DNA of 61,021 nucleotides, counting the filler. It is 5 parts of 5 records of this genome, joined end to end, with 100 filler letters (N's around TTAATTAATTAA, not from the genome) between each part and the next. Parts side by side here need not be neighbours in the genome. Positions count along the whole stretch, not along the records: positions 24,091 to 34,710 come from DRR378314_287; 4 more parts are not named here. One strand, 5' to 3'. This document shows, in pieces, positions 23,991-54,928 of the stretch. Below the pieces are notes generated by a model. That model ran no database searches and was not told the origin of the DNA. It saw only the letters and a program-made list of their open reading frames with translations. Made by a program: the position numbers and the translations under genes. Numbering within the stretch: the first letter of the stretch is position 1; every line of letters starts with the position of its first letter.

Positions 23991-24090
23991 NNNNNNNNNN
24001 NNNNNNNNNNNNNNNNNNNNNNNNNNNNNNNNNNTTAATTAATTAANNNNNNNNNNNNNNNNNNNNNNNNNNNNNNNNNNNNNNNNNNNN
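23991..24090. other. Artificial contig linker
   Basis: N44-TTAATTAATTAA-N44 (stops in all six frames). Confidence 0.99.
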
Positions 24091-24131
24091 TTTTGTTTGT
24101 TTGTTTTTGTTTGTTTGTTTTTCTTTGTTTT
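24091..24131. repeat. (TTTG)n microsatellite at contig edge
   Basis: ttttgtttgtttgtttttgtttgtttgttt... Confidence 0.85.
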
Positions 24132-24181
24132 GATATCGCGTGCGATGATGCTGCTCGCCGTGCTGAAATGGATGTGTACAG

Positions 24182-25238
24182 GATGTATACTGTGCATACC
24201 TGCCGACACGGGAGCAGTATGAGCAGCATCTCCAAGAAGCAGGTACGCCGTCAAAATGAACAACCGCTCCATCGTCATGCTGGCCGGCAGCGGCAGGAGC
24301 AATCGGTTGGAGTGCACCGGGAATCGCCAGTGAGCTATGCGACGTCGCTCCCTGCAACAGGTCTTCGGCTCGGCGACGGGATCGGCGCGCAGTATGGGCA
24401 GAGGCCGCGCCAAACTGCTTACCAACCTGCATTGGATTCCTCTCGCGGACGCGTCATGCGGCAGGCTTTACGATCACGTCCTTTGCAGATATGTCGGAGC
24501 CGTGGACAGCGTTTGTCGCTGAGCGGCACGATTCGTATGTCGGGAACTGCGACCGCCATCGCCGGTACGTTTGCCCAAGACGCTGGCATGCAAGGTCGCT
24601 CGATGCAGCGTGCATCGCCCAAGAAGTTCATTGCGGGTGCTTGTATCGTGTTCTTTTGATCTCTGTGACACAACTGGAACTCATGCCTTGGAAATGACGT
24701 ACGCCACCCTGCAGAGTCGTGGGTGACGCGGTGTACAAGTCGCAGGAGCACTTCTTCCGCACAGTGCGCGAGCTCTTCGAAGGCGGGCATGTCGGTACGC
24801 GAGCGCGGGCGGCCATATTCACGTAGTCAAAGCGCGGCGCTGGTAGTGAATAGGCATCATTCTTGCGTATTGTCGCCCAACGTCTCTTGCTTGAGCGTAT
24901 TGTCGCGCAACGTCTCTTGCTACAGCGCATTGTACGCGCGTGTGCAAGTTCGCAGTGTCCCAAGGGTAGCAATCGGCTGCTACGAGCAGCATATCATCGC
25001 CGCTTGTGGCAGCGGCGGTTGAGCGGTCGACACCCAGGCACAACGTTCGTGTCTCGTTCCTGGAAAGAAAGCGATGCGGACAAATGCAGTTCTTCAAAGG
25101 ACACGAATATTGCAGCGGCGACGCGCCAACGCACTTACGCTCCGATGCCGCGGCGGTTCTGTCAACCCCTTGCCCCCCCAACCAACCAAATCTCTCGTTA
25201 CAGGCGGCGCTCGCATTCTCGTACAACGCAAGGCATAG
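24182..25238 (+). CDS. 3' exons of a spliced class I SAM-dependent methyltransferase (sarcosine/dimethylglycine- or phosphoethanolamine-MTase-like); 5' part off-contig
   Basis: Exons 24182-24242, 24465-24564, 24715-24794, 25204-25238 with GT..AG introns and matching phases give DVYCAYLPTREQYEQHLQEAGFTITSFADMSEPWTAFVAERHDSYVGNCDRHRRVVGDAVYKSQEHFFRTVRELFEGGHVGGARILVQRKA*. Confidence 0.75.
24865..24933. repeat. 30-bp tandem repeat (about 2.3 copies) inside a methyltransferase intron
   Basis: gcgtattgtcgcccaacgtctcttgcttga / gcgtattgtcgcgcaacgtctcttgctaca / gcgcattgt. Confidence 0.8.
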
Positions 25239-26079
25239 CGTTCCTCGATCTCTATCCAGCGTACCCTAACCGAAAGGAGGAAATGCTTGATAATGCGTAG
25301 ATGGTAGAGAACTACTGACATCATGGACGACATGTACCCGGGATACGCGTGCAAATCGCACGGCGTGCGCCGAAACGGCGCCTCGCGCACGTGCGAGCGC
25401 GGTGGCTGGCAACCCCGCGCTTCTCGTTTCTCGTTTCTCTAGGTCGCTCCTCCCCGCGCTGCAGCGGCAAGGAAGCTCCGCAGCATCCTAGCAACCGAGT
25501 AGAATCCTATTTTCCTTAACCCGCCCATACTGTTGCACCCGGAGCAACCACGTCGGTTCAAGCTACAGGAGAACAAAGCGCTGCGCATAGGCTTGCCGTA
25601 TGCATTGTTCGGAGGCGCCACGCATTAACGGGATGCTCTGCCATGCGCCGGCGGCGTGTGAGAGTACGTTTGTTTGCGATTTGGTTTTTTTGTAGTTTTT
25701 TCGTTGTGTTTTCGTATGTTCCTCCCTTCTATGCCACAGTGGGATGCTGTATGGAGAGGGAGCCGTTTGCTGCGTGCGCGGTACTGTTCTGCGCTGCGCT
25801 ACAGAGGCTGTTGCGGATCGTTGCCACGGCTAGCGGATAGCGAGGCGGCGACAATGACAAAATGCATGATGCAAAGCGCGTTCCGCACGTGGCGCGCGCA
25901 CGCCCCTTCCCATGTATAAAGCACATTTCATATTCTCAACCGCTCATATACTCCATGTCTCGCGACAAATGCCCATCACCACCACAAGCACAGCCGAAGG
26001 CATCGCAGCAGCAGCGCGCACAAGCTGACAGTCCATCGCGACAGAAGCGAGCAACTGCACGCGGCCTCCGCCACCTCAA

Positions 26080-26964
26080 CTACCCCGACTTGGCCTTTTG
26101 CGGGCGCAAGCGACTCGCAAAGCGATGCACCCCGTGCGCAGCTGGCGTCGCGATTGTTCCAAATACATAAGTCACGGCCATTCGATAGTATGGCCCAAAC
26201 GCCTCGAGTGCCTTGACGGGCGGGTCGCCCGGGTGAACAGTCATGTTGATGTTGATTCCGAACGCGTGCGAAAACGGGCACAGCACAAACAAGTGGTACA
26301 CGGCCGCGCCCCACCACGTCAAAAACACCCACGACCAGTCATGGTACAGTGGACGGAATTCAGCCACAATGTCAAAAATCGGAATGCTCAGCATCAGAGC
26401 ATGCTGGATCCAGTACGACCAGATCTCCAGAGCACTGTCGTAGTCGCGGAGATCCACAAAAATAAGCGCCAACCACGCGCCCCACGTCAGGTTCGCATAC
26501 ACGTTGAACAGGTCGTTTGCGAGCTTGTCGGACAATGGGCGCAACCACAGCACCAGGAGCAGCGTCGTGAGCACGTGGCACGGCTGCAGCAAATACGCCA
26601 CACGGAATAGGCGCCACTGGAAATTCGCATCGACGAACTTGTACACAACAATAAACGAAAACGACACGGCCAAGGCAGCATGCAGCGCATTGCGGACGGC
26701 AACGAGCGCAGGATTCGCCGGCCCACGCAGAGGGTGCGCGCGCGTTCGTCGCCCGCGGCGCAGCGCTTTGCGACCCACCACAACCCACACCAGGTACAAG
26801 CACATCGCCTCCAGCAAGAATATACGCGGTGATACATACCACGACGTCAAGTGATAGAAAGCGGGAGGCGGGCTGAACTGGGCAGCAAACGAAGCCGGGC
26901 CCACGGGCACAGCAGCCTTGAAAGCGGCGTCGAACGCATCGAGAACACCGGCAGCAAGCTCCAT
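26080..26964 (-). CDS. TMEM164-family multipass membrane protein (intronless)
   Basis: YLLQPCHV, GAWLALIFVD, YWIQHALML, YHLFVL, NINMTVHP, FGPYYR resemble TMEM164 motifs. First ATG at 26964. Confidence 0.8.
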   Translation of the reverse strand: MELAAGVLDAFDAAFKAAVPVGPASFAAQFSPPPAFYHLTSWYVSPRIFLLEAMCLYLVWVVVGRKALRRGRRTRAHPLRGPANPALVAVRNALHAALAVSFSFIVVYKFVDANFQWRLFRVAYLLQPCHVLTTLLLVLWLRPLSDKLANDLFNVYANLTWGAWLALIFVDLRDYDSALEIWSYWIQHALMLSIPIFDIVAEFRPLYHDWSWVFLTWWGAAVYHLFVLCPFSHAFGININMTVHPGDPPVKALEAFGPYYRMAVTYVFGTIATPAAHGVHRFASRLRPQKAKSG

Positions 26965-29295
26965 CGTGCAGTACAACAGCGGGCGCCTCTCTGCTGACCC
27001 CCACTTCCACCAAACGAGCGGTGCGCTTTATCAGAGACGATAAAAAACGCTTGCGTTATACAATTTGCCCCCCTAATGCACTTCTGTACACGAAAACCAC
27101 AAGAGGGGTTGAACTGCAGAGGCGACGCAAACCGCCACGCGTCCGACGTATGCACGAAAGCTCACGAAATTCTCCTCGCTGGGAGATCCGTGCGGCAGCC
27201 CGAGAATGCTGCCACTACCCGGAAGCCCTGCACAACGAGCAGAGACCGGTAAATAGCCAACACACGTCCACAGGTCACGCGAAACCGGTTAGTATACCCA
27301 GGCAATGCGCCATGCGAAGGTGCGGATTGCAACACACACCGCTCGTAGCGGAAAACAGCCGGCAACGTTACGCCGCTGCGAGTTACCCCCCAGCGGACTG
27401 CCGCAACCGTGCAACAGGAGGCGTCAGGAACTGCACAACAGTACGCGCTTCTGCCGCGTCAAAAAGCACCGTAACTCATCATGTGCACTACATATGGACA
27501 ACTCTGCGACAAAATAGCAGTGCAAATGCTACACATTTCGGCCGGCGGGGTACGGGAGCTCACGGCGGCGTGGCGGCGCGGCGGACGACGCTCTACCCGT
27601 CTGTCTGCGCACAGCGAGCTCTCCAGTACACCCCTCGCTGCACGCCGCGGGCGGCGTCCCGCAAGAACTCGTGCGGGAAGACAAAACTGCGTACGCAGGA
27701 GGCATGCGCGCCTCCATCGCAAGCTGTAGAGCATCTCCTTAAACCTTTCTATATGAGAGAGAAATCGCGGTGATACGAGGGCGATCGCGCATGGAGAAGA
27801 CGTACAACGTGCGGGGAAGCAGGCCAGTACGGCAGAAGAGGAGAGCTAGCGGCTGTGCATACCGCAGGTGCACGACAAACTCGGCGGCACAGAAAGCCGA
27901 ACCGCGGCCACACGCCTCGACCCGCCCCAGCAAACACGGCACTGCTACGCAGAGTGCACTCGGAATGCCACAAAGAAAGAGCGAGACGCATGGCATATCG
28001 TCTGGACTTTGTGCGCACCCTTCCATAGTTTGCCTTCTCCGTGCACCCGCACGCCTTGATAAAAGTGCAGAGGTGGGGGGATAAACTTTGCAGGAGCGTC
28101 GGCAATGCGGGCGCCGCGCCGCCGCTGCGTCGAGGGCGTCCGGCGGCGCACGCGACCCGGTCTCCTCCACACACGCACCTGATGAATGCAGTTCCAATCA
28201 ATCAACGCGTGCAGACCACCGCAGCAGCCGTTGACACGATATTTAGAAGTGAAGGGGGAGGGGAAGAGGGAACACTGCGCACAAGCAAGCGGCGAGGCCC
28301 ACGGCGCGCGCAAGCAAGCGCAACGCGCACGCGAGTGAGCGGCAGGTTCGCGCGGAAGTGAAGCAGCCCGAGACAAGCAGTAACGCGCGCCGCCGGGAAG
28401 TGGTCCCTCCTTTTTCCCAGTATCGTGGGCAACCAGGTGGTGCAGATAGGGGGCTGCATACTGCAACCTTCAAGTGTTCATCAAGCCGACCATGACGCAA
28501 ACCCCCTGGTCACAGCCGTGCGCGCAAAGGGTGTACTCATGCCCCATGGGGAAGGAAAGCAAAGTGAGCTTTGTTGACCGGACCTGCACGCCTCACACTT
28601 CGCAAGCCCCGGACAACCGCGCAGGCCTGGTCAAGGTACTTAGGGCTAACGGAGAACAGCGCTCAAACATCGTGCAAATCAAGGTCTCTTATGCAGATAA
28701 TTTACAAAGTGATAAAATTTCACCGGCCGTTGAGCCATCCGCCCGAGAAGCGGTGCAACGTTTGCAAGGAGTCATCGCGGCGGACAGACAACGGTTCTCT
28801 CTGCTTGAGCTGCAACGCTCGGCTGCGCCCAGGAACAAGGATTGCCGTTCGCAGCTTATCTCCCGTGCAGCTCCGCCGGGTGCCGCGATTGTGCTGTGCT
28901 TGCTCGTACTTATAAGGTCGCACATTCCTCGTTTTTCGATTGACCGCATCGTGTTGGATCTGGAGCGCGCCAGGTCCGCGCACACGCGTGCGTGCAGACA
29001 AACGGCATTGGTGCCGCGCCCAAGAGAGAACTGCGCGCGTTGCGCTCGGGCCGAGCGTTCGCCAAAGCGCACCCGCAGCACACCAGCTTGGTTTGGTTTT
29101 TGGTCCGCCGCGTACTAGCCGTCGCGCGCCGCTCTTCTGTACTCTCTCCTATATCTACTCTGCCTTTTATCCGTCAGTGTCTCTTGTACTATTATCGCTA
29201 GAGCCTCGCGGGGAAAAGGCGTGTGCTGCTCAGCGTGACGACGCGAAGCGTCCTGGAAAAGCTCTCGTGCGCAGCGCGCATCTCCGCCTTGTGCC

Positions 29296-32200
29296 ATGCG
29301 CCGCGGCGCGCGGGCGCGCGGCAGCTCGACGCGCGGCAGCCGCGGCCGCAGCGACGGTGCCGCTGCTGAACAGCGTCGTTTGCCAGCGCGTGCCTCCGTT
29401 CAGCAGCCGTCGGAAGACGTCGTACGAGAACGAGCGGCGGAGCACGCCGTTGTCGAATGGCCGAGACGGGCGTCCCTGGACGATGCAGACGTCGAGGTGG
29501 AGACAGCCCGGCCTTCGCGCACCTCGCTGCTTGTCAACGTCGCGGGAGAAGGGAGAGCCTCGCCGCTGGTCGCCGCAGAGGGCGCGCCGCCACCGTCGCT
29601 CCGCGACCGCTTGCAGCGGCAATCCAGTCGCCCCATGACGCCGCGCGCGCGTCCGGGATCGAGTGCACGTGCAGGTACTGGACGAAGTGATACAGCGTCG
29701 CTGTTTGCTCGCATTGAAAACGGCGACGCAGAAGCAGCCGCCGAGGTCGACGTCAACCTCCGGGACCACGGCGGTTGGACGCCGCTGCACCGCGCAGCCA
29801 TCAGCGGCCAAGCCGAGCTCGTCGGCGTCCTGCTCGAGCGCGGAGCAGATCCGCAAGCGCGAAACAACGTCGGCCTAACTCCACGCGATGTAGCCAGTGG
29901 CGACGAAGCTCGCGCGGCGATTGCCAAGGCTGCTGCCGAACAGCGCCAGCGCGCGCGTGAGAACAGTCCACGCGGAGCGCGCGCCGCCGGCGCAGCGCGA
30001 CGTCAGCGAACGGGCACCGGCGACACTCGCCCGTTGACAAAGAAAAAGAGCGCCGGTGACCGGAGCCTACGCGCTATCGACTCGGCCAAGGCAGTCGGGA
30101 CGTCGAGTGCGCGCAGTGGCGAGCAGACTTCATCGCTGCGCAAGGCAAGAAGCCGCTACGGATCCGCGTCGTCGGTCTCCTCGGCGAGGCAGAGCCTGGC
30201 GACAGACTCGGCCTCCAAGGATGGCGACGGCGACAGCGTGTCGTCGCAGACATCGCCGCTTCCCTTGGTTGACGGTGGGACTTTTGAATCGGGTGTGGAG
30301 CCCATCGCTGCAAAGCGTCCGCAGGCGCGGCGCCCGTCGCAGGGATCGCTCGGCGGGCGTGGGTCCGAGCCGGCTTCGCAGGCGCTTCTGCGCGGGCCAA
30401 GCCTGCCCGACATGCCAAAGATCCGGGCGCTTCAGAAGCACAACGATCCAGAAGAAGATCGCCTGTCGCGAATGATTCTTTCAGCTTCTAAGCTTGGAGA
30501 TATGAAGAAGATCCACGAGTTGCTGCGGCAGCACAAGGACTTTGTCATCGGTCGCGTGCAGGAGTCGCTCGACGAAGACGCCGCCGCCAGGAGGACGCCG
30601 CCGCCGTCGCGGAGCGCACCGCGGGGCACCGATAGCGAGACCGCCGGAACCGATCGGTCTAGTACGCCAACCCCGTTTCCCCACGAAGCGGATCTCATTC
30701 GTGGCGACAGCATAGACGACGAGCACACTCGTGTCGCCCACCACGCAGAAGGAGCTCGTACGCCTTCGCCCGAGCCAAGCAGCAGCACGGCGCGCGCTGC
30801 ACGCCACGCGCGCGCAACACCCCCGCTCCCCTCTCTTCGCATCGGAGATCCCAGCGACGGAACAACGCCGCCTATGCACTCAGCGCCAGCAGGAGACTCG
30901 CGCAGCAAGGGATTCCGTAGCCACCCGCGGCGCGCTGTCTCGCTGGACGACAATACGCCCGGGCTCGCCGTCCCTGTCCGCATCGCCCGAGCGGGGTCGG
31001 ACACCGCGTCCGTGTGCAGCGCTGACACGTCGTTCTCGCGCCTGTCGCAAGATACCTCGCTCTTTGAAGACGGCGACGAGCTTCTCGAGCAATTCATCAC
31101 TGCGGCGAAAAAGGGCGACTTGGAAAAAGTCATCGTCTGCCTCGACGACGAAATCGACATCAACGGTCAGGACCGGATGGGCAACACGGCGCTGCACCGC
31201 GCCGCGTACTGGGAGAGGCTCGACGTCGCGCGCCTGCTCATCGAGCGAGGCGCCGATCTCTCCGTCGCCAACCGCCGCGGTCAGCGACCGGTGGACGTCG
31301 CGCGCACCGAGCAGATGCGACAGGTCATCGAAGGCGACCGGTACCAGTCGCCTCAGCTCCGCAGGCAGCAGTCGGGTCGCGACGCGATCCAGAAAGAGCG
31401 CTCCATGCGCCTCATGCGCAAGAGCGGTGAAGGGGAGCTCAATTCGCGCTCGACAGCCTCCATGTATTCGTACGTGCGCGAGGTAAACGACGACGGCGAG
31501 CGCCTGGTCGAAGCCGCAAAGCGCGGCCGCATTCGCGAGGTTCGCGTTCTTGTCGACGAAAGGGACGTTCACGTCGACGCGCGAGACAAGTTCGGCTGGA
31601 CGGCGCTGCATCGCGCTGTGTTCTGGGACCGAAAGGACGTGATTCACTTCTTGGTGGAGCGCGGGGCGGATACTTCGCTGAAAAACAACAAGGGAAAGAC
31701 TGCCATCGACTTGGCGCCGTCGGAAGAAGTCCGCAAAATTCTCTTAGGATCGCGCTACAAGTCGCGGACTGAACGACGGCGCGAGGCCAAGAAAAAGGTG
31801 CGTGTACACTGAGCGCAAGGGCGCGGGGGAGGTTGGCGTGCTGCGCCCCAAGAACGGGGTCCTCGCCACCACCCGTATGCCCCCCGTTCTCTGCGCGATT
31901 GATTGTGGCAGCACTTGATCAAGAAACTATGTAGGCTTGGCCTTGCACTGCAAGCACAGATAGGCAAGAACAGGGGAAAAGCAGAACAACATGCGCTCCA
32001 GCGTCCATCCGCGTGCCGCCGACACGCTGCAGCTCGGCACAGCCTACCACCCTCCCCCCCCCCCGCCCGGAAAAGCTACAGAGAGCGCACGGGTTACTCG
32101 GATCCCTCGCTGCTGCCCTGCCTACGTGCGCTCCAGAGAAGTGCTCACGTCGCGAGCGTCACCGCATGCACTCCTGCAAATTCTCCCTCGTGCTCAGATT

Positions 32201-34640
32201 GCAATGGAGCGCAAAATCTCCCTCATCAATGCCTCGGAGGATGGACTTGCAAACTCGCGCGCCGAGCGCGCCGATTTCCAAGTGTCGACGCAGGCGGAGC
32301 ACACGCGCGATCCCTCCGTGCGTTTTGTACACGCTTGCAAGCGCGGCGATCACGAAACCGTCCGGCGCATGATTGCAGAAGGAGTGGACATCGACGCGCG
32401 GGATGAGCTGGGGTGGACGGGGCTGCATCGCGCCGTGTTCTGGGACCGCAAGGAGATCGTCGCCGCCCTGGTGCACGCCGGCGCCGACGTGTCGCTTACC
32501 AACCCCAAGGGCAAGACCGTGCTCGACTTGGCGCCGTCGGAGGAAATGCGACGAATTTTGCAAGGGGAAAGCTACGTGTCCGCTCGCGAGCGCGAGCTAG
32601 GTCGCGCCAAGGTCAGCGAGCAGGTCGTCAACCCGCGGCTTGACCTCGTGCGCCTGGGCCTCGGGCCCGGAGGGGCGGGCGGCCGCAACGCGCCCGGCGC
32701 ACTCGACGCGCTCCTGTCGCCGCGCGGAGGCGCGCGAGAGAGCGCCGGCCGCCGCGTGAGCCGCCGCCTCTCGCTTCGAGGCGATACCAGCACGGCGCCC
32801 ACCGCAGCCACGGCAAACGCGGCCAAAGACATTTTCAACCGCAAAATGGAACTCGCGAAGTACATCGAAGAAGAGGGCGGCGGGCTCGGCGAGTACGACG
32901 AGGACCTCGGCTTGGACGCCATCCGCCTCGATTCTGACGACGACGACGGCGCGGACGGCGATGGTGACGGCCGTCGCCGCGGCGACGCGCACCGCGGAGG
33001 CTCTGCGGGGCGCGACGATGGCGATCCGGAAGATCGCGGAGCCGCACGGCGCACGTTTATTCGCGACCTGTTGCGCAAGTTCAAGCAAGCTGCAACGCAG
33101 CACTTGACCACGGAAGAAAAGTACAAATGGGCCGCCATGTATGTGCGCGACGCCATGTACGGGCGCGATGCAAAGACGGACAACTTTGGAAAACGGCAAC
33201 TGCAAGTCTACCGCTTCCTGACGCATCCGTACTACTACTTTGCATACCTAGTGGTCGTTCTGCTCCACATCTCCATGGTATTCCTCGAGCCGGTCTCCAG
33301 CTCCGAAGTCCACAAGCTCGGCGACAATGTCTCGGTGTGGCTCACATCGTGGAAGGTCGCGTACGCCATCTCATGGGCGTGCCTCGCTGTGTACACGGCA
33401 GACGTAGGGCTGTCGCTCTACGAATCGGGGCGGAATGCGTTCTTTGCCAAGTCGACAAAGCTGTGGAAGTTCGTCATCGTGCTCTCCATGATTGTCGACG
33501 CAATCGTCTACGCTGCGGCTGGATATGTGCAAGTCACGCGCGTGCTGCGCGCCTTTCTGCTTGTGCTGCACATCAAGCAGACGCGACGGTCGCTTAACAC
33601 GCTGCTGCACGTCACGCCGAAACTGGGCGAGGCAATCCTTGTGCTTTCCACATTCGTCGTGCTGTACGCGGTGATCGGCGTATCCATATTCGCGTCAGAC
33701 GGCGGGAGCCGGTACGACCGCAGTACCCCGTCCAACGCTGTCGAGTTCTTCATGTTCGAGTTCAACAACTTCCAAAACGCCTTTTTCGCCCTGTACGTGC
33801 TGCTGACAGGATCCAACTATCCCAATGTCATGTATCCGTCGTACCACGAGAATCGCGTCGTTGGCGTGGTCTACTTTGTGTCGTTCCACATTCTCGGCCT
33901 CTACGTGTTCCTCAACCTCGTCATTCCGCTCGTGTACAAGGCGTACAAGCAGTCGCGCAAGGCCAGCATCTTGCAAGAGGCCGCCAAGGAGCGCCGCGCG
34001 CTCGCCGCCGCGTTTGCCGTTCTGGACGAAGTCAATCCCGATCACCACGGCGAGCTATTCTTCGACGAGTGCGCTGCACTGTTCCGCCAGCTGCGGCGTG
34101 GCATGGACGAGAAACAGGCTAGAAAGATGTTTGAAAGCCTCGACGTGGACGAGTCGAACACGGTAGACATCATCGAGTTCTTCGCCATCATCGATGCCCT
34201 CAAGCTGCAAATTGACCGCGACGAAATCGTGCAGGAACCATGGTCCTTGCTTATGACTGCATCGTCTCTGATGCAAAGAGGACATCACTTTCGAAGCGAA
34301 TACGTTCGGATGCGCGCAAAACTCACATCCATGGTTTTCTCCACCTGGTTTATGTACACCATGCTCGCTGCCGTCGTCGCGCACACGACGGTACTCGCGC
34401 TCTACGGGACCGTCTCGACCTCGGAGGAATCGCACCTTGTCATTGCAGACGGCGCGTTTGTCGGCGTATTTACGCTTGAAGTCGTCCTGAAAATCATCGC
34501 CTTAGGCTGGAAGCCGTACATGTCTATTGGATGGAACCGCTTCGATCTCTTTGTCACGCTGGCATCGCTCGGAAATCTGCTGCTGCGCGAGGGCCTCGAC
34601 AACGATGGCTGGGTGGCGCTCCTGCTCGGAGCGATCAAAG
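29296..34640 (+). CDS. Ankyrin-repeat / two-pore channel (TPC) fusion protein, spliced, 3'-truncated
   Basis: Exon 29296-31797 (AAG|gtgcgt) joins exon 32198-34640 (ctcag|ATT) in phase 0. Four ankyrin modules (e.g. GWTPLHRAA, GWTALHRAVFW), then TPC domain I (S4 QVTRVLRAFLLV; pore LYVLLTGSNYPNVMYPSY), two EF-hands and the start of domain II (WNRFDLFVT). Next donor G|gtacgt at 34641. Confidence 0.82.
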
Positions 34641-34710
34641 GTACGTCGCACCCGGTCACTTCCCGCCCCCGGCTCGGGTTCTGCATTCTTGCTACTACAC
34701 AGAAGACAAC

Positions 34711-34810
34711 NNNNNNNNNNNNNNNNNNNNNNNNNNNNNNNNNNNNNNNNNNNNTTAATTAATTAANNNNNNNNNNNNNNNNNNNNNNNNNNNNNNNNNN
34801 NNNNNNNNNN
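34711..34810. other. Artificial contig linker
   Basis: N44-TTAATTAATTAA-N44. Confidence 0.99.
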
Positions 34811-37800
34811 GACGACGAGCGCGATGTGCGCCGCGCGCGCAGCACTGCCGGAATCACGTCGTCGTCGATGGAGTCGCGCAGCCGGCTGCGCTGCGCCGAG
34901 GCGCTCTCGAGCTCGCGCGCGGCCTCGGCAACCGCGTGGTCCTCCTCGCGGAACGAGCGCGGCGCGCGCGTCGCGGCGACGCCGGCGGACGTGCTCGAGC
35001 GCCGCCGCTGCCGCCGGCTGCCGGGCGCGCCGCCGCCCGCGCCCTGCGACCCGCCGAGCAGCGCGCCCGCGTCGCCGCCGCCCGGCGCGGCCTCGACGAG
35101 GCGCGTCGCCCACGTGTGCGACGGCAGCGCGCGCTCGAGCCGCGCCGCCGCCGCCGCCGTGCTGTCGAGCAGCGCGTTTGCAGCGCGCGTCAACGTCGCA
35201 GCGACGCGCGCCACGCGAGCGCACGCAAGCGACGGCAGCGTCGTGGGCGTGGCGCGGGTGCGCGGAAAGTGCGCGCGCACGGTGCAGCGGAATCCGAAGC
35301 GCGGCGGCTCGCCCGGCTGCGCCTCGGCGTGGAACAGGAATACGGCGTGGTCGGACGGGATGATCACGCGGCGCGGCCACGCGCCGCGCGGTCCGCGCAG
35401 GCTCGGTCCGAAGCGGCCGGAAGCCTCGGGGTGCACGTAGAGGTCGAGCGTGTCGTTGAACCCGCTGTCGCAGTCGGCATCGAATTCCGCGGTGAGGAAC
35501 AGCGCGCCCGGAAACGCGACGACTTCTTTCGTCGACGCGTCTTCCGCGTACGGGTGCGCGGACTCCACAACGCGCTCGTACCGGCGCTGCGCGTACGCAT
35601 CGCCGCGCGACGCGATGCGCGCACGCGCCGATGCGGCGTCCCGGGCGCGGAATCGCGCGTACACTTCGCGCAGCGACACGATCGCACCGCGCGCAAAGCT
35701 CGTGTCGCGCACCGCCTCGTACGCGATGTCGAGCGCGCCGTCGAGCAGTCTGGCGAGCGGGGCGCGCGCGCGCTCGCAGCTCAGCGCCGCCTCGCTCAGC
35801 CGCGCGCTCCCGAGCCACGCGCGCAGCAGCAGCGACACGCACGTAGCGCGCATCGACGACCCGCACGACCAGATCCGCGCCAACAGCGTCTCCAACACGG
35901 TGTGCGCAGGGAACGAGGTGGCAACGGCGGCGACTGCGGCTTCGCCTTCCTCGCTCGCAGCGGACGCGCGGCCGCCGGTGCTCGGGCGCTCGCGCTCCTG
36001 CGCCGCAGCTTCGGCCGACGAGCACCACAGCGCCTCGGCCAACGCCGTGCGCTCGGTTTCGCTCATATTTGCGCACACAGCGCCAACCGACAGGAACTCG
36101 TGCCCATCGTCATCTACCACGGCCGCTGCGGCCACGCCTGTCCCGACGGCAGCGGGAGCGGCGTGCTGCGCCTCGGAGCCGTCGCCGCCGCCGCCGCCGC
36201 CCACCTCGACGCCGCCCGCGGCGAGAAAGAGCGCGAGCGCGGTCGGCAAGGTGTCTTCGGCGGGTTTCGCGAGCGAGATGTACGCAGAGAGCACGTGCGC
36301 GGGGCCGAACGAGACCGCCGCGTCCCGCATCGCGGCCTCGAGCATCGCGGCGTCGTCGACCAAGTGGAGCAGCGACGCGACGACGGCGGCCGTCGCCTCG
36401 TGCGCGAGGCGCGCGGCGTCGGCGGTGTGGCGCGCCGCCGCGACGAGCTCCGCGCGCTGGGCGCGCCACCGCTGGCTCACCGCGGCGATCGCAGCGGCGA
36501 CCTGGACGCTGTCCGGCAGGCCAGCGCGAACGCTGACGTGGACCACGCGGAGCAGCCCGACGATACATAGCAGTCGCTCCAGCGGACGATCGCGCGCGGG
36601 CGCCTCGTTCCTGTCGTCTGCGCTGCAAGAGTCCATGATGCGCAGGAGGAGGTCGACGGCTTTGAGGACGGTCGGCGCGCTCGCGTCCGCGCAGAACGGC
36701 GCAACGCGCGCGCGCGCCGGCACGTTCGTCGCGAGATCACCGAGGAAGCTCAGCACGCACGCATTGAACTCGCGCGTTCTCCAGCGCGTCGCGTGCTCCT
36801 CGTGCACGCGCGCGCAAATCGCGCGGAGCGGTACACGCGTCACCACGTCACTTGTGACTGTGACGCTGCGCTGCCGCTTCGGCGCGAACGCGGCGATCTC
36901 CGCGGTTCCCGCGAGATAGCTCCATAGACACTCGCGCATCGGGTCAAAGCACATTGCCAGGCCCACAGGAGCTCGTCCGAGGTCGCGCGGAGGCAGCATA
37001 CTCCCCGTGGAGAGATTCCACGACGCAACGAGGTACCGCGCACCGGAGAATCCCGCAGCAGACGGCTCATCGTCGGCGGCGTACGGGATAATCGCGTGCA
37101 GGAACGAGCCGTTGGTGTAAAACGACGCGAGCTCAAAATCGCTCGTGATGGCATTGTACAGCTCTTCCATGTCTTTGTTACTCGCATCGGGTCGCAGTGG
37201 GATTCGCGCGATGCGTCGCAGCTCGTTGGACGTGTCGAACACTGTCGCGATGAGCTTGTGCTTTTCGTCGCCGGAGGCGGATTTCTGCGCGCTCTCGTCT
37301 TCGCTGGACACAAACGGCGCAACGCACCAAATATCAACAGCCGTACTGCCGCTTGCGCACGTTTTGATCCCGCTCAGCTCATCAATATCGTCTTCGTCAT
37401 CTTCGTCCTCGTCGCACTGGCACGAATCCGTGCTGGAGAGTGGGGCGATTTCCATCGGAGATCCTATTGCAAGCGACTCTGTGTCGACAGCAGCAACAAC
37501 AAAGCTGCGACCGCGCGGAATGCGCACGTAGAGCTTCCCAGCCGCAGCAAACAACGACAACTGTTCGCTGCAGTCGAGATCTTGCAGCTCCAGCGGGGCG
37601 CTCATGTTGCGCTCATACACGAACCCGCGCAACGTGCCGCCGTGACCTGTGCCAATACGCGCGAGACCGGCAAACTGGTCGTAGATGTACAGGAAATTTC
37701 CCAAAACTGCCACGGCAGACTCAAACGTTCCCTCTGCGAGAAACGCGTGATTGGGCCCAAACGGCAGCGCGTGGGCGGTTGTCGACGGGTGCAAATTCCA

Positions 37801-39348
37801 TTGTACGGACCAGAGTCCTACGAGTGTGCTCCCATCGGGGTCCGGAAGCGGCTCGCGTAGCGAAAATTGGAGCAATTGAGAGGCTGTGGCACCAACATCG
37901 AGCTCAAGATCGAACTGCTCGCAGATTCGCACGCAGTCGAGGATGTCACTTACGCGCTCTGATAAGATGCAGCAGCGCACAAACGCCGAGAGGGCAAGGC
38001 GGCGCTCTTCCACGCCGAGCGCTTGTTCCTGAAAGGCTTGCTCGCAAACCTTTCGAAAGCTCGGCACAGCGACCTCGCTGCTGCCCTGTCCAAGCGGAAC
38101 GCGGTAGAGTTCGTTTGTAACTGCGCTAAGAACCGCGCGTGCCGCTGTGGGATTACTGAGACCCATGGAGTGCACGAGCGTCAGCGCCAGGGAGGAGAAC
38201 ATCGCCTCCGACATTGTCCGAGGCTGTATGGGGTGAACCAGGTACCGAGCGCGCGAACTCGAGAACAGTCCTCCTGCTCCATCTGCACCATCTGCGGCTT
38301 CGTCAGGTCCGCCGCGCTGCACAGCGGCGACGCAGATCCGAAGATATCAGGTAAGAAAGGGGACAAGAATACGTACAAAATGGGAGCGTGGGCGTACGCA
38401 CTAGCAAGGAAGGAAGCGAAGCCCAGAAGGGTCAGACTCGCGGAAGACGGGAGACACCCGTGTGCCGCCAGCGCCGTGCACTCACAATCTTGCCCTGCAG
38501 CGCCGCGTTGCCCCGCCCTTTCCCCCGGGGGCCCATTTGTGAAGCGCACAACGTACGAGATGGTCTTCTATCGCACGAATTCGCTCTTTCAGCGCCTCTG
38601 TCGTGGTGCGCGCGCGCAGAGCAAGCAGGCGCTCCATAGGAAGCGGCGTCCCGTCCGTCGCGCACGTGTGCAGCCGCTGCTTCAGACACTTCCCAGCTTG
38701 CCGGAAGAAAGCCTCCTCGGAGCCGGGGACAGTGCCGACGAAGAGCAGCGCATCATCATCTGTCAACGAATCATCAAACTCTTCCCTACAAGGCACATCA
38801 ATTACGAACACAGTGCATAGAGAGAAAAAGGGGCGCAGTTGATGGAGCGTTAGCGCGTATCTCTGCCTTGGCCAACTGCATGTGATGGCGACGAGTGCTG
38901 AGCGCGGGCCGGAAACAGTGACCTTGGGCGCTACGCACGGAAACGCGCAGCGCGGGGCCCGCGTGGCAGCAGGAAACCACCACAATGATACACGCTGCAC
39001 TTTACCATACGCTCTCTTAGTCGTCTGATCACCTCTTTCTCCGCGCGGCGGGGCGCATAAGGGAGCGGCATGGCATTTGTAGCGCCTGCGGTTCTGCACG
39101 GAAGTGGCGCGGCGGAGGAGCGCTCTCGAGTCCAGCCGGCGACGGCAAGCAGAGCCGATGCACAGCGCCGCACGTCTGCCGCCAACGACCGGTTGCATCG
39201 CGGACAGCAGAACCGCTCGCGAAGGATGACAAGCGGTAGGCGTTTTTTCTTTTGAAACACACCATTCAGCAGTGAGTTTATCTTCGATCGCTTTCGTTGC
39301 GGTGCGGTCCAGGAGCGCGTCAAACTCGTCGTGGGTGGAGTGCACCAT
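34811..39348 (-). CDS. Giant HECTD4/MYCBP2-like protein (probable E3 ubiquitin ligase), N-terminal part, 3'-truncated
   Basis: Exons 39348-39263, 38785-38557 and 38316-<34811 join in phase with GT..AG ends. Motif LYIYDQFAGLARIGTGHGGTLRGFVY and a CUB-like VESAHPY...FPGALFLTAEFDADC domain, as recalled from HECTD4/MYCBP2/ZZEF1. No HECT or RING domain is visible in the window. Confidence 0.68.
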
Positions 39349-40806
39349 GCTGACTCGCGATGAGCAGCTCCGCTCGGCCTGTAGCGGAACGCAGCACAGA
39401 GCAACGCAAATGCGCCCTCATTCCGGGGGATGAGTAGGACAGCAACCGGATAGAATTGCACGATGTTGGTCTATTCTACGCATGAATGATACAATGGACG
39501 GGCGCACGCCCATTTCTTTTTTATATCGCGCGTACACTTATAACGGCAAGGCAAGGGCCCAGTCAGCAGCCCCAGCGCCCGAGAGACCGCCCGCCGCGGA
39601 ACCAGCGCGTGGGACGAGTCCCACAGCCGTCCACGCTAGAATCCCGTTTGCGCACGACCAGCACTGACTTCGATATCGATTGTGCGGTTAATATTGGCAG
39701 TCTACCCAAATATTGAGATAAAATTGGAGGACGAGGCCATCGACTGTTCAGGAGCGCCTGGCACTCGTGGTTTGCCCGCGCGCCACGCGCTGGGGCCGAG
39801 GTTTGCGGCGGGTTGTCCCGCGCCTCACACACAGCCCGCCGCGCAGAGACAGAGGCGCTGCGACGAACCTACACTGTTTTCGCGCCTTCTCTATCCTCTT
39901 CTCTGGCAAGAAAGTACTAGTTCTCTGTGATATACTGCACAATTTTCGCGCAGGCAATACGCTCCGCAGCGCTTCGCCTTGCAGCACGCGCAGGCGGCTG
40001 CGTGACGCTGTGCTCGGGGCGGCGCAGTGCGGACCGCGCTGCCCGTGCGCGTGTGGGACCCAGCGAGACACACCGCGCGGGGAGCCAGTATATTTACTGG
40101 TTAACAAACTAGGTTCAACACGCCTCCCGCCCACGTGGCTCGAGTGCATGCAAAGCCAACCTGGCTCCCGCTTGCGCAGCACTACTGCTCACGCGTGCTC
40201 GAGTGACTCCCGACGCAGAAACAGAGTGGTAAATGTAATTATGAAGAGAGGTTTGCAAGGACCGCGTATGCGGTTTGGGGGTAAGAACCAACGTGGGGAG
40301 GACGAGAAAGTAGGATTCTGCTCGGGTGCGTCTGCGCTTTTCGTTCGTACTCCATACTCTCGCAGAGAAAGCACGTTCGGCGCCTTCTCTCCGTTATTTT
40401 TTTTTGTAAACTTTCCTATTTCGCAATGCGTCGTGCATCTTTCGCTCATGTTTCGTTTCTTGGCTTCAATTATGCTAATATCTTGCCGATATGAGGGACG
40501 CAACCGTGTTCGGCGCCCATTTGCACCAGGAACAGTGTGGAAAAGAGAACTGACAAGCACGATCACGTCGTTTCGGTTTACATCTTAGGGCTAAAAATAG
40601 AGGCGGTACTCGTCCGACGCCTCCTTCGGCGTTCAGCACGAGCGTCAAAAGAAAGCATGGACTTTTTCCCTTCGGTGCTCGCTGTGGTTGCGGGACGCGG
40701 CGTCGCAGCTCGCGAAGTATACGCTCTTCATCGGATTCAAGCTCTCAATCGGTTTTATTGTCGCTGCGCTCTGTGGCAAAAGTGAAAGCCGCACTGCCGG
40801 AGCCTC

Positions 40807-41475
40807 ATGCTGCCGTCGCGTGACGCCAGTCCTTCTCCCTCTGCCTCCTCCTCTTCCTCGCTGCTGTCGTCGTTTGGCGGCCTCTTGCGCTCCTATGTCG
40901 GCTACGCCACCAATAGTGCTGAGCATGCGGACAGTGTACTTGAAGAGCGCAGAGCTTGCCTGGCAGTGGCGCGCGACGATGTGAGAGTGGCAGTGGAGAG
41001 TGTGGGTGCGTGGCGGGACGCTGCGTCTCGCGCGCGCGCGGGCGCCTCGGGTGCTGACGCGCGGAGCCTGCGCGCGCGCGCCGCCTCACACGCAGCAGGG
41101 GCGGAGCCGCCACTATCGCGCGACTATTCGTCGAACAATTTGACGAGTACACAAACATATGGTGACGAACTGGTGGGGCGAGCTTCGGCAGGGCTTGATG
41201 CAGCGGCGACAGTCGCACGAGCGGTTCACGAGCCCACGCTTGGCCTGTGGTACATCAAGAACCACCTGCGGCACAGCGGGCGCGAGCTTGTTCGCACGTA
41301 CACCTCGTTTGCAGAGACATCCGAGAAACTGACACAGACGTCCAAAGATGTCGAGGATATGGTGCGTGCGCTCCGCGAGCTTGCCGACGTATCGGCGTGC
41401 GCTCGAGTCACCGAGCAGCTGCGGTCGGTGACGCTGGAACTCGAAGGTGCCGACGAGAGCGCCGAGGCGAGCTAG
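40807..41475 (+). CDS. BORCS8/MEF2BNB-like protein with an N-terminal extension
   Basis: C-terminal HEPTLGLWYIKNHLRHSGRELV...DVEDMVRALREL resembles the BORCS8 pattern NEPSxxLxxxQEHxRxSxPxL. Intronless 222-aa ORF. Confidence 0.55.
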   Translation: MLPSRDASPSPSASSSSSLLSSFGGLLRSYVGYATNSAEHADSVLEERRACLAVARDDVRVAVESVGAWRDAASRARAGASGADARSLRARAASHAAGAEPPLSRDYSSNNLTSTQTYGDELVGRASAGLDAAATVARAVHEPTLGLWYIKNHLRHSGRELVRTYTSFAETSEKLTQTSKDVEDMVRALRELADVSACARVTEQLRSVTLELEGADESAEAS

Positions 41476-41762
41476 CTCGCGATTCCAGCGGAACCACGAA
41501 CTGTAACTGTCGGGCGAGGCCCGCGATGCAACATGTAGTTTCTTTCCGAAAGAAGGCGGTGGTGTACGAATAAAGCGATACTTTTTCTGTTGCTACGTCC
41601 GGTCGGTGGACGACAGAGCACCTGCGAGCAGCTGCACACGGCGCGCGACTGCGCAGTGTCGCACTTTCTTCGCAGAGCAATGTTCCGCTGCTCGCACTCG
41701 GGGCCCGCAGCGAACACCTCATCCGTCATTGCTGTCGATATCGCATCCGTACGTGCCCGGCG

Positions 41763-43008
41763 CTACGGATCAGGATGCCACGGGAGGTCCACTGCGTGAG
41801 CGATCGGCAACGTACACGCTGAGCACAGTGCCGATCGCGCCACGGCGAGCTCGTACGCAAGACGCGCGATATTCGTGTTGAACGCCGCCACGAACGCTCG
41901 ACACGACCCCAGCGCATCCACGAGGCTAATAATATCGATCGTAGTGATGCGGGCGCTGATCGACTGTCGGCGCAACAGTCCCACGACATTGGTGTTCGCT
42001 GCGCTTTTCTTCCCGACGATTTTCACCGGGATACGCGCTCGTTGCTGAAACTCCTGAAGTACGTTCGGATCGTCTGAAGCAGCGATTGCGAACGAAATCT
42101 CAGGGTCTCTCTGCAGGAATCGTTCCACACGACGCATATACTCTTGTAGATTGAAGAAAGGCGCTTCTGAAAAATGATCACCGCGCCGAATATGAACCGC
42201 AACACATCGCTGTTGCACAAGGGAGTCGCGAGAATGAGCATGTTCTGCAAGCACACGAGAGGGAAACGAATCGACATGATTTTCACGCGCTTTCGTAGTG
42301 GGGAAAGGAGGAACGAAAAAGGAATAGCCGAGAATGATCTTCGAGTCACGGAAGCGGAGAGAAGCAGAGACGGAGAAAGGCAGAGAGACCAAGAAACTGT
42401 CGCACTGACTAACGGAGCGACGGAGAAAACTATGGTGCTGCAAAGCACAAAACGATGTTCATGCAGTTTTTGGCACTATGCAGCGTTCGAGTTCGTATTC
42501 TGAGGAGTACTCTGCTCGCAAGGAGCTGCGCAATGGGGCGAGAGGGGAAGTGAGCGAATCGGCGTTGCAGCAAGACCGCTGTCGCTGTCTCGCCGCCCGA
42601 CGGAACGGAATTTCTCGCCTTTTTTTGCGCTTTTCTCCCATTTCCTGAACAGAGTTCATGAAATGTGTCACTTCTTCGTAGAAGGACAACAGATCTGTTT
42701 GCAGATTTCACGAGCAAATCCGACCGGAAATCTTCGACATCAACCCTGTTCTAGCAACGAGTCATTCATTCACAGCGTATGATCTGTTGTACTCGAGTCC
42801 TTACCATGGCGATTGCGTAGCAGTTCTGGTCGTATTCGTCGCCAAAGCGCATGAACTAGCGCCGATCTCCACAGCAGAACTCCTCCTTGATCATCACGCG
42901 CATCGAATGAAGGAAATTCCCACCTTCTCGCCCGATTCTGCACCAAGTATGAAGCTATTGACCCGCATGTAGTCTTTTCCGAACATCCAAGTTCCCACGA
43001 AGTAGTTG
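41763..43008 (-). CDS. Alpha-1,6-fucosyltransferase-like (GT23/FUT8-like), last two exons; further exons upstream unresolved
   Basis: Exons 43008-42805 and 42244-41763 join in phase 1. Motifs VAVHIRRGD, IAASDDP, DALGSCRAFVAAFNTNIARLAYEL, AVDLPW. Confidence 0.78.
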
Positions 43009-44061
43009 CTGACGGGAAATAGTCGCAAATGAAACAACAAAAAAGGAAAAAGAAAGGGGCAACGAGAGGAAGAAGATGGAGAGAAAAACGCGATGAACAA
43101 CGATGCGACAAAATAAGAATCGGTACTTACCGACGTTGATTTTTCTCAGACCGTATTGCTTTTTCGCGCATAGGAGTGTTTGGAACGCGAATTGCTCTTA
43201 TGGAACGGTATTAGGCAGCAAAATACAAACGTTTGCGTGAATTGCGCACATTCTCTGTTGCAAAACATTCCGCGTGTTGATGCTCAGGAGGAAAGAATAG
43301 TGATTGTGTTGCTCTAGTCGACAGGAACCAGCGACTCTCTCTGTCATCTTAGATTCTCGGAGAATAATCTCCATTTGCTCATATCTGGGTCGTTTTGACG
43401 TCAAGATCTTTCTAAACGTACGAATTTCAAAAGCACATCGTAGAGAAAATCCGCATTCTTTCCATCCAAACTGGATCGTAGAGGAGTCAAACGAGACCAC
43501 TCAACAGTATCGTGTGAGTGCAAAAGACTCAGGAGCAGCGGGAAGAAGCGTGGGAACTCCTTGAAGAGAGCACACGGTAGTGCAGCTTGATTTCACGCTA
43601 CGTATGTCTTTGTTCTCTTGTAAGAGTATCGAGAGGGTGAGAGAAATTCATATTCCCGATGTCTCTACGTCCTTCTGTCGCCTTGATCGTGGCCAGGAGA
43701 CGACAAGGACTTCACATTCGGAAGAAGAACGAGAATCCCTCGTTTCACATCGCAAACTAGTGCACGGAAAGTGCGTCTTGGAATTCTTTGATCGCCTTTC
43801 TCTCGTAAATATTTTACAAATTATGCTTCATGGGGGTCGCAATTTCCTTGCTTTTCATGAGCGCAACGATACGTCAAAATACTTTGACTACTCCCTCGAT
43901 TCTCCAACTGCCACACAATGGGGTTGACCGGAGTTTTCCGCGATCTGATCTCTACATACCTGCCATGTATCTTCAACAGCGAACTGAAACGAAAAAATTA
44001 CAAATATTGATAAAGAAAAAAGATATTAGGAGTTAGTATATATATAGTGTGTGTGTATGGG

Positions 44062-44161
44062 NNNNNNNNNNNNNNNNNNNNNNNNNNNNNNNNNNNNNNN
44101 NNNNNTTAATTAATTAANNNNNNNNNNNNNNNNNNNNNNNNNNNNNNNNNNNNNNNNNNNN
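44062..44161. other. Artificial contig linker
   Basis: N44-TTAATTAATTAA-N44, flanked by (TA)/(TG) and (TATT)n microsatellites. Confidence 0.99.
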
Positions 44162-44215
44162 TATTTATTTATTTATTTATTTATTTATTGTAAATCACGT
44201 TCTCTTTTTGAGCAG

Positions 44216-47200: not shown

Positions 47201-47736
47201 GGGCGTTTGTGACGCGAGCGCGCTCGTTTCCTCCCTGATTTTCTCGGTCATCCTGTGTATTCAGGTACTGTTTCGATGTGGATTGGCAATTTTGAAGATT
47301 CGCGAAGAATATATTTTGTCTCTCGATACGTTTGAGAAGCTCATTATGTGCCTGCAGAATGTAGGACAGGTACGTCTCTCGGTCGAGATCTGTGATATAC
47401 CGGATGATCTTGTAGCGTCTACGTGATGATAGTGGTGGAGATTGTCTTCGTACGCTGAAGATGCTTTTTTTTCGCTGCGCCGTTGGTTTTGTACGTTGAT
47501 TTTCGTCGAGTGCTTTGTGTGTGCGTGTGTGTGCAAACTCTACGATGTTGTTCCGTTTGTTGATAGTGCTGCGCGTGACGGTGCGTGACGTGTGTCCGTG
47601 TGTCCAGGAATTATACGACTGTGACACATTTGTGTCCGTCATGCATGAAAAATCGTGGATTGGCTCGTTCCCGTCTTCCAAGGTCGAAGCGCTGCGTTCT
47701 GAACAGCGCGACAAGCTCGAGAAGGCTCGAGAGTGA
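44216..47736 (+). CDS. TBC-domain Rab GTPase-activating protein (spliced, 5'-truncated)
   Basis: Exons 44216-44514, 44774-44944, 45394-45519, 45991-46115, 46565-46757, 47265-47369 and 47608-47736, all phase-consistent. Motifs LIRSGIPSEYRGHLW, KDVDRT (Arg finger), GYCQAINF (Gln finger), EWFLCLF, RVWDLL. Confidence 0.9.
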
Positions 47737-50665: not shown

Positions 50666-51432
50666 ATCTTGTACGAAGTGTTGCGAACCAGCTGAGCTCG
50701 AATGTCGGGCGCGAGCGCGAGCGCAGGCTGCTCGCCATGGCGCTTGCCGCGTGGCGCGCCCGTCGCGACGAGAAGAGGCGCCTGGCCGCACTCGGTGCGC
50801 GCGCCGTAGCGCGCCTGCGCTCGTCGCGGCTCCGCGCCGCGTATCGCCGCTGGCTCGATCGCACGAGCATGTCGATTGCGATGACGCAGCAGACGACGCT
50901 TGTGGCGCGCCAGCTGCGCAAGCTGCTAGCGCACGACGCCCTGGTCGCGTGGCGCGACCAAACGCGAGCGGACTTGCAGCGCGCTCGAATCGCCAAGCGC
51001 GTTGTGGCTGCTATGCGGCACAGGATCGAAGCGCAAGTCATGCGCACGCTCAAAGATCGTGCGGAAGCGAGGCGCTGGCGAGAGCACATTCTCTTCCGCG
51101 TTGCGCGCGCGCTGTCCATGTCGCTTCGCGCGCGCGCGCTGCGCACGTGGCGCGCGCGCTTTCTCGAGCATCGCGCCCAGCAAGCCGCCATGCGGCGAGT
51201 CGTCCACCGCTGGCAGAATGGGCTGATGGCGCGCGGGTTCTCGCGCTGGCTCCAATGGACGGACAGCCGCACATCGTCGCGCCGTGCATTACGCGCCGTG
51301 CTGCTCCGGTGGCGGTCGCTCCGCATGGCGCGCGCGTTCCAAGCGTGGGCCGGCCTGGCGCGCGCAGCGCAGTGCCGCGAGCAGCTCCTCACTCGCTACG
51401 TGGCGCGCTGGCGCGAGGGCACGCTCGCGCGC
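50666..51432 (+). CDS. Sfi1-like Trp/Arg repeat protein (putative centrin-binding), partial exon
   Basis: Acceptor ttccag|at at 50666. Periodic repeats such as ARALRTWR, RWQNGLMARGFSRW, RWRSLRMARAFQAW. A phase-compatible donor at 50293 suggests an upstream exon. Runs off the contig. Confidence 0.6.
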
Positions 51433-51532
51433 NNNNNNNNNNNNNNNNNNNNNNNNNNNNNNNNNNNNNNNNNNNNTTAATTAATTAANNNNNNNNNNNN
51501 NNNNNNNNNNNNNNNNNNNNNNNNNNNNNNNN
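51433..51532. other. Artificial contig linker
   Basis: N44-TTAATTAATTAA-N44. Confidence 0.99.
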
Positions 51533-51574
51533 GTTCATCCATGAACGCTTGACGAAGGCCATTCATGGCCTTCG
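51533..51574. repeat. Double-hairpin intergenic repeat at contig edge
   Basis: gttcat-cc-atgaac and cgaaggccat-tc-atggccttcg share a CAT(C/T)CATG core. The contig breaks here, as expected for a multicopy element. Confidence 0.55.
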
Positions 51575-51662
51575 ACACTCTGGCATAGAGCCCCTTAACA
51601 CTCGTAACGCTTACATGCGCCCCAACAGCCGTTTATCAGCCTTTAGCCCTTAAACGTCAGCG

Positions 51663-54916: not shown

Positions 54917-54928
54917 TTTAGGCTTGTC

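Follow-up and report, generated by a model that had tools for sequence, protein, structure and literature searches.

A two-pore-channel-type gene with ankyrin modules dispersed along a long N-terminus in a contig of a GC-rich eukaryote

Two-pore channels (TPCs) are usually described as compact proteins of ~700-850 residues that are regulated by lipids, NAADP, Ca2+, and voltage. Cytosolic N-terminal ankyrin repeats precede the six-transmembrane (6-TM) cation channel domain in TRPA1, NOMPC/TRPN, TRPV, and TRPC of the transient receptor potential (TRP) family. The plant Shaker-type K+ channels AKT1 and SKOR, which have a single 6-TM domain of the voltage-gated type and a K+ pore, carry ankyrin repeats for partner binding C-terminal to a cyclic-nucleotide-binding-like domain. 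For plant TPC1, the main text of a 2026 review describes voltage gating through domain II and Ca2+ co-activation at the EF-hands of the linker, and it lists both TPC1-3 and 'TPC-related' genes in protists (PMC12839299). Diatom TPC1s have two EF-hands and TPCL is without them, according to the main text of PMC11085791. TgTPC of Toxoplasma gondii is presented in the main text of PMC8490419 as a protein of 1,502 aa with two channel domains, an extended N-terminus and linker, and no EF-hands, and its clade is separate from the animal and plant TPCs. Here we describe a gene at positions 29296-34710 of a 61,021-base stretch of DNA (hereafter the window, meaning the whole stretch that was analyzed), in which ankyrin modules and a channel part of the TPC type stand in one reading frame of one spliced RNA. 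All features of this gene lie on the plus strand.

The original prediction had joined two open reading frames (ORFs) of 838 and 923 aa into one gene through a 400-nt phase-0 intron at 31798-32197, and a contig from a public run (hereafter X1) shows exactly this joint. The 864-nt X1 contig connects position 31795 to 32196 (cut +2), extends 367 nt to the left and 497 nt to the right of the joint, skips the 400 nt, and remains in frame from ankyrin module 3 into module 4. The intron has GT..AG ends, with the donor AAG/GTGCGT at 31797/31798 and the acceptor TGCTCAG/ATT at 32197/32198. ORF1 runs from the ATG at 29296 to the stop at 31810-31812 and has the predicted 838 aa, while the size given for ORF2 is only approximate, as no stop interrupts this frame between 31964 and the contig end at 34710 (~915 codons). 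In the spliced form, coding exon 1 (29296-31797, 834 codons) extends from the first in-frame ATG after a stop ending at 29238 to the donor AAG/GT, and coding exon 2 (32198-34640) adds 814 codons and one base. The joined product up to 34639 thus has 834 + 814 = 1,648 aa. This is a lower bound, since the gene leaves the contig at 34710, and it agrees with the predicted fused product of more than 1,648 aa with four ankyrin modules, which are recovered by both Pfam and a module profile.

The gene does not end at the last base of exon 2. A 1,685-nt X1 contig matches the window up to 34640 and continues for 330 nt beyond it, and 34640/GTACGT is therefore taken as the donor of a second intron (34641-34710), which is ended by the contig boundary and the N-linker at 34711-34810. 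The first 30 nt of the continuation encode in frame K-x-x-R-x-x-R, as expected for S4 of domain II. These 30 nt have no match in the other contigs of the window, and a tblastn search of the window with 40 second domains of relatives gave matches solely at 33000-34600, with no sign of the rest of the gene.

X1, the one run found to contain the gene, is marked 'RNA?', its RNA nature being a guess of the tool, and no run listed as RNA contained it. The run contains 74% of the sampled words of the gene. Its contigs within the gene are fragments of 700-1,685 nt, which cover exon 1 at 29418-30305, 30596-31295, and 31429-31795 without an internal joint and exon 2 at 32196-32692 and 33286-34640. On the second contig of the window (24091-34710), which carries the gene, the five joints of X1 contigs all have GT..AG ends (CT..AC for the minus-strand neighbour), and five intron-like skips are what is expected from cDNA. 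An assembly chimera was rejected because the X1 contigs are colinear over the ankyrin-channel ORF, with at least 99% identity in 11 of 12 records. Within the gene, seven single-base differences distinguish X1 from the window (30975, 31512, 31515, 33232, 33643, 34147, and 34353); variation between strains or alleles could account for them, and so could errors. The best explanation of the locus, in which we have good confidence as a whole, is that it represents approximately the 5' three quarters of one spliced and transcribed gene of a GC-rich eukaryote.

The N-terminus bears four ankyrin modules. Pfam detects Ank families in ORF1 (Ank_2, E 7.7e-29, three stretches) and Ank_4 in ORF2 (E 3.9e-9, residues 45-91), and a profile built from the ankyrin modules places four of them in the two ORFs. 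Module 1 (29689-29934; ORF1 residues 132-213) contains Ank and Ank_5 matches at residues 151-200 and has a profile i-E of 6.7e-35. Module 2 (31051-31335; ORF1 586-680) contains Ank_2 at 601-657 (i-E 1.3e-41), and module 3 (31483-31746; ORF1 730-817) contains Ank_4 at 738-787 (i-E 5.1e-47). Module 4 (32303-32572; ORF2 36-125) lies beyond the intron and is matched by Ank_4, Ank_2, and Ank at 45-102 (i-E 2e-48). Modules 3 and 4 are 58% identical, and the remaining module pairs are 35-40% identical. The modules are separated by linkers of 143 to 372 residues, and owing to these long linkers they do not form a contiguous array like that of TRP channels. Ankyrin sequence accounts for ~355 of the 1,174 residues ahead of S1 (~30%), and the remainder is a low-complexity linker rich in R, A, S, G, and D, so that the predicted 'ankyrin-rich' N-terminus was an overstatement. 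No hydrophobic segment is present in this part of the protein or in ORF1 (maximum Kyte-Doolittle value 0.79).

The channel part, encoded by ORF2, shows six hydrophobic or S4-type segments of domain I followed by S1-S3 of domain II. It begins with the pre-S1 cytosolic helix motif AAMYVRDAM (33131-33157), which matches the AA....DA...R pattern of two-domain relatives and corresponds to helix 6-22 of the structural model described below. Domain I, S1-S6, occupies 33224-33961 (Pfam Ion_trans, ORF2 343-588, E 9.4e-43) and is also delineated by its hydrophobic segments, by an alignment of 25 rows (hereafter alignment A1), and by the domain trees. Its S4 segment QVTRVLRAFLLV is located at 33530-33565 and its pore-loop motif LLTGSNYPNVM at 33800-33832; with AAMYVRDAM, all three motifs quoted in the original prediction are present. 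A conserved Asn and Pro together with the lack of an acidic filter residue in the domain I pore loop constitute a TPC signature. In the pore loop LLTGSNYPNVMYPSY, N241 is nearly invariant and P243 invariant over the 25 rows of alignment A1, the domain I filter T-G-S-N has no acidic residue, and the pattern T-x-S-N-x-P-x-V-M-x-P-x-Y aligns with the pore loops of relatives. The domain I pore loop thus fits this signature.

An EF-hand-like pair follows in the domain I-II linker (34016-34189). Pfam EF-hand_7 is matched weakly here (ORF2 607-664; E 0.0032), its 18.2 bits falling short of the cut-off of 30, and helix-loop-helix elements are seen in the model. The second loop, DVDESNTVDIIE (34142-34177), has the canonical 12-residue pattern; the first (34022-34069) carries a 3-residue insertion when aligned with the relatives. 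The position of the pair aligns with EF-hand pairs of P0088, P0090, and other relatives that pass the cut-off. The predicted EF-hands correspond to an EF-hand-like pair at the homologous position, with a canonical second and a non-canonical first loop and a family match under the cut-off. Domain II starts with S1, S2, and S3 at 34322-34640, as judged from a second Ion_trans stretch, hydrophobic segments at 709-770, and the alignment to domain II of relatives, and it includes an NRFDLF motif (34535-34585). The predicted TPC-like 6-TM domain and the start of a second one are therefore both found. The window holds a complete domain I, the EF-hand-like pair, and S1-S3 of domain II, and the start of S4 is in the X1 contig.

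An exhaustive HMMER search of 1.84 billion representatives returned 4,213 matches at E ≤ 0.001, of which the best 150 were examined. Among these 150, the closest relative is 31% identical, the top nine matches all have two Ion_trans-like units, and a rough count gives two units in 68 proteins, four in 38, three in 27, one in 10, and five in 7. Among solved structures, AtTPC1 is matched in a single colinear stretch (E 1.2e-29, query 109-489 versus 141-505), as are TPC3 (7-503), mouse TPC1 (7-498), and human TPC2 (54-492). Domain I, the linker, and domain II are all covered by the one colinear TPC stretch, whereas the Cav channels are matched piecewise. TRP chains are missing both from the 60 sequence matches shown and from the fold matches listed.

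Domain trees were built from proteins with exactly two or four units of at least 150 residues, i.e. 62 two-unit and 17 four-unit proteins giving 193 rows. In the FastTree tree of all 193 rows, domain I of the query falls in a set consisting of 54 two-domain first domains and the query, with support 100. In an IQ-TREE tree of 67 rows, it groups with 23 two-domain first domains at a support of 99 (SH-aLRT, a Shimodaira-Hasegawa-like approximate likelihood ratio test), and all rows of the first to fourth domains of four-domain channels (4d_D1 to 4d_D4) lie on the other side of this branch. The 'two-domain' label proved wrong for P0016, P0064, and P0101, which are four-domain Cav channels with missed units and group with the four-domain rows; Pfam finds four Ion_trans stretches in P0101. 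P0140, a two-domain protein whose row is one of those nearest the query in the 193-row tree, matches solved TPC3 over its full length (2.3e-90).

The predicted fold leads to the same group. An AlphaFold2 model of the 515-residue channel part, computed with alignment A1, has a mean predicted local distance difference test value (pLDDT) of 82.7 and a predicted template modelling score (pTM) of 0.67. In the Foldseek comparison, every one of the 18 matches listed through rank 19 is a TPC chain (E 2.2e-14 to 1.5e-07, TMq 0.49-0.60), and Cav, Nav, and bacterial Nav chains come after them (TMq 0.33-0.39 for Cav/Nav). Atlas feature matches of the channel part score 0.94-0.96 and fall on Ion_trans/EF-hand clusters, among them 'Two pore calcium channel protein 1A'. 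By sequence, tree, and predicted fold, the channel part groups with the two-domain channels, and the trees, the colinear alignment, and the fold place it with TPCs rather than with TRP or four-domain channels, as the original prediction had held.

Compared with TPC1 of plants and stramenopiles (Arabidopsis TPC1 5E1J, 5DQQ, and 7FHN; diatom TPC1), the protein has the same order of pre-S1 helix, domain I, EF-hand pair (here EF-hand-like), and domain II. Its best fold match is 7fhn_A (E 2.2e-14), and a basic S4 of domain II, seen in the transcript, is a further common feature. On the other hand, the solved TPC1 chains have 675-741 residues in total (without the GFP tag), while the N-terminus alone of the present protein has ~1,174 residues with four ankyrin modules. 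The fold alignment gives ~20% identity to solved TPCs, the first EF loop carries an insertion, and domain II is read only to the start of S4. TgTPC, compared here by its description in the main text of PMC8490419, is likewise a protist TPC with an extended N-terminus, but it has an extended linker and is described as lacking EF-hands. The present protein shares with TRP channels the placement of N-terminal ankyrins before a 6-TM cation channel domain from the same superfamily. A TRP subunit, however, contains a single 6-TM domain and its ankyrins stack contiguously, whereas the present protein has two channel domains in tandem and four short, separated ankyrin modules. AKT1 and SKOR, in their layout as described above, also fuse a 6-TM channel to ankyrins, but with a single channel domain and the ankyrins on the C-terminal side.

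P0089, P0096, P0116, P0145, and P0094, which are among the nearest sequence relatives (E 1e-46 to 5e-30), share the two Ion_trans units and mostly the EF-hand linker, and have 640-1,300 residues ahead of domain I. They differ in carrying cyclic-nucleotide-monophosphate-binding (cNMP-binding), DEP, or Cache/PDC domains, and none of them matches the ankyrin module profile. P0089 has 1,299 residues ahead of domain I with a cNMP-binding domain, P0116 has 1,026 with DEP and cNMP-binding domains, and P0094 has 1,254 with Cache/PDC; cNMP-binding domains are also found in P0096, P0145, P0156, and P0185. Descriptions of such cNMP-, DEP-, or Cache-bearing two-domain architectures did not turn up in the papers searched. 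Four-domain relatives carry C2 or U-box domains (Pfam). Long, domain-bearing N-termini are common among these two-domain relatives. The length of the N-terminus, which had been regarded as distinctive, is therefore not so: these three relatives exceed 1,000 residues before domain I, and TgTPC is extended too in the account of PMC8490419.

The combination of ankyrins with a two-domain channel, in contrast, was not met in the relatives surveyed. The ankyrin-module profile matched none of the 150 best relatives and recovered all nine ankyrin-bearing control proteins, and Pfam scans of 43 relatives (23 + 20) found no ankyrin. A word-indexed search among longer proteins gave 83 matches to either ankyrin proteins or Cav channels, in none of which Ank and Ion_trans occur together. 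The same kind of search gave eight matches with alignment A1 at 2,280-5,000 aa, none with Ank, and two matches with the channel part at near lengths; these word-indexed searches yielded no close relative and no named TPCs. A metagenome scan with the channel part produced 63 pattern matches, none of which was confirmed. No description of an ankyrin-TPC fusion was found in the open-access papers searched, where annotations existing only in databases would escape, and the word 'ankyrin' occurs zero times in the main texts of PMC8490419, PMC11085791, and PMC12839299. The architecture predicted as unusual thus remains so in its ankyrin-channel combination but not in the length of its N-terminus. 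Within this limited survey, it is a TPC core with an accessory domain, ankyrin, not previously seen on a TPC core.

Taking all of this together, we consider it quite probable that the gene encodes an expressed channel of the TPC family with an ankyrin-bearing cytosolic N-terminus and the function outlined below. Several observations weigh against this view. The summed scores of T-type Cav chains exceed those of TPCs among solved structures, being spread over many separate domain-wise stretches. The best relatives are only 29-31% identical, so that a TPC proper and a protist 'TPC-related' protein both fit. The EF-hand match falls short of the Pfam cut-off (18.2 versus 30 bits), with a non-canonical first loop. 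The splice evidence comes from a single contig of a single run, and that this run is RNA is a guess. No X1 contig spans the whole gene, and shorter isoforms starting downstream may therefore exist. Finally, the 3' end with S5-S6 of domain II, its filter, and the C-terminus is missing, so that the number of domains is deduced rather than seen.

The truncated 3' end leaves room for the gene to be the front of a four-domain Cav/Nav-type or other multi-domain channel, with domains III and IV beyond the contig end and its 'two-pore' appearance an artefact. In the window the gene breaks off after domain II S3, T-type Cav chains lead the summed scores among solved structures, and an EF-hand pair occurs in some four-domain relatives, such as P0204 (411-469, before its best Ion_trans stretch at 550-788). 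We regard this as very unlikely, since domain I sits inside the clade of two-domain first domains (support 100 and 99) and apart from all four classes of four-domain domains, the TPC alignment is one colinear stretch where that to Cav is piecewise, the 18 Foldseek matches listed through rank 19 are exclusively TPCs, and the top nine sequence relatives have two units. A TRP-type channel, with an ankyrin N-terminus and one 6-TM domain, misread as a TPC seems extremely improbable. N-terminal ankyrins before a 6-TM domain are indeed the layout of TRPA, TRPN, TRPV, and TRPC, and the named clusters nearest to whole ORF2 in the atlas are ankyrin and TRP clusters, at scores of 0.83-0.84 that lie below the 0.9 line and serve as leads only. 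However, when the channel part is taken by itself, its scores to Ion_trans/EF-hand/TPC clusters are 0.94-0.96, a second Ion_trans unit is present in the same chain, TRP chains are absent from the 60 sequence matches shown and the fold matches listed, and the ankyrin modules are dispersed with no contiguous array.

It is also unlikely, in our judgement, that the ankyrin part and the channel are mostly separate proteins, produced from an internal promoter or start (e.g. the ATG at 32204), with the fused mRNA being a minor or read-through form. Such products would be compatible with the X1 fragments of 700-1,685 nt, none of which covers the entire gene, and with the in-frame ATG two codons after the acceptor. 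Against them, the joining contig leads in frame from module 3 into module 4, consensus splice sites bound the 400 nt between the ORFs, and the 58% identity of modules 3 and 4 fits one repeated array. Moreover, a single unbroken exon and ORF contains both module 4 and the channel, as foreseen in the original prediction that the second ORF alone would retain one ankyrin module, and therefore at least one module is fused to the channel in any case.

The window consists of five contigs (1-23990, 24091-34710, 34811-44061, 44162-51432, and 51533-61021), joined by linkers of the form N44-TTAATTAATTAA-N44 at 23991-24090, 34711-34810, 44062-44161, and 51433-51532, across which no feature can be read. 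The second contig, with a G+C content of 59-64%, has spliceosomal introns, as seen through the X1 contigs. Its bins 24799-25152 and 27277-27984 are without X1 cover. A gene for a TMEM164-family protein (Pfam E 5.4e-15) lies on the minus strand at 25904-27226 and 28178-28370, in head-to-head orientation to the channel gene and ~925 bp away from the ATG of the latter; its 951-nt intron (27227-28177, CT..AC on the plus strand) is joined in an X1 contig. Another spliced gene occupies 24180-25880 on the plus strand, with three GT..AG joints (24238/24461, 24563/24714, and 24793/25203), and a loose end before 24180 suggests that it begins beyond the contig start. On the minus strand of the third contig, an open frame of at least 1,178 codons (34811-38346) runs into the contig start, and Pfam assigns no family to it at E ≤ 1e-5. 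Dense ORFs of bacterial-type look are found in contigs 1 and 5, with families such as alpha-amylase, MalK-type ABC ATPase, pyruvate kinase, PGI, response regulator, HipA, DUF1302, a fused phosphotransferase system (PTS) EIIA-HPr-EI, and a PTS fructose-type EIIB'BC. Since these two contigs look bacterial and the second carries spliced eukaryotic genes, the assembly mixes a eukaryote and bacteria. An Rfam scan of the whole window gave no match.

In its full form, the protein would have two 6-TM domains and would assemble as a dimer with a pseudo-tetrameric pore, through which cations would be conducted. By analogy with the family, whose members are organellar dimers gated by voltage, Ca2+, PI(3,5)P2, or NAADP, opening may depend on membrane voltage sensed at S4 of domain II and on cytosolic Ca2+ at the second EF-hand, and the channel may reside in a vacuolar or endolysosomal-type membrane. 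Judging from its anatomy, the N-terminus would be cytosolic and would hold four ankyrin modules of ~85-95 residues on disordered linkers. Such a region would most likely position or regulate the channel by serving as a scaffold for multivalent protein binding, and not work as a spring of the TRP kind. To name an endolysosomal location, tethering, or mechanical or ligand gating, as the original prediction did, is speculation. A more far-reaching proposal is that the gene represents the first member yet seen of a lineage-specific TPC class, in which four minimal ankyrin domains strung along flexible linkers tether a Ca2+- and voltage-gated channel of an organelle or possibly the cell surface to cytoskeletal or signalling partners and couple binding or mechanical load to gating. 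This would be a convergent TRP-like solution on a TPC core, with cNMP-binding, DEP, Cache, and ankyrin domains acquired independently; we find it rather unlikely.

At present, the finding is an annotated architecture whose lineage is poorly sampled and whose homologues are all distant (≤31% identity), and it touches no long-standing question. An ankyrin-TPC is nevertheless a natural comparison for TRP channels. The dispersed ankyrins on a TPC core suggest a view of protist TPCs as a modular platform that has received different cytosolic sensors or tethers, and the relatives with fused cNMP-binding, DEP, or Cache domains reinforce it. Should the ankyrin string control where the channel sits or how it is gated, it would offer a new way to study the coupling of organellar cation channels to the cytoskeleton or to signalling complexes.

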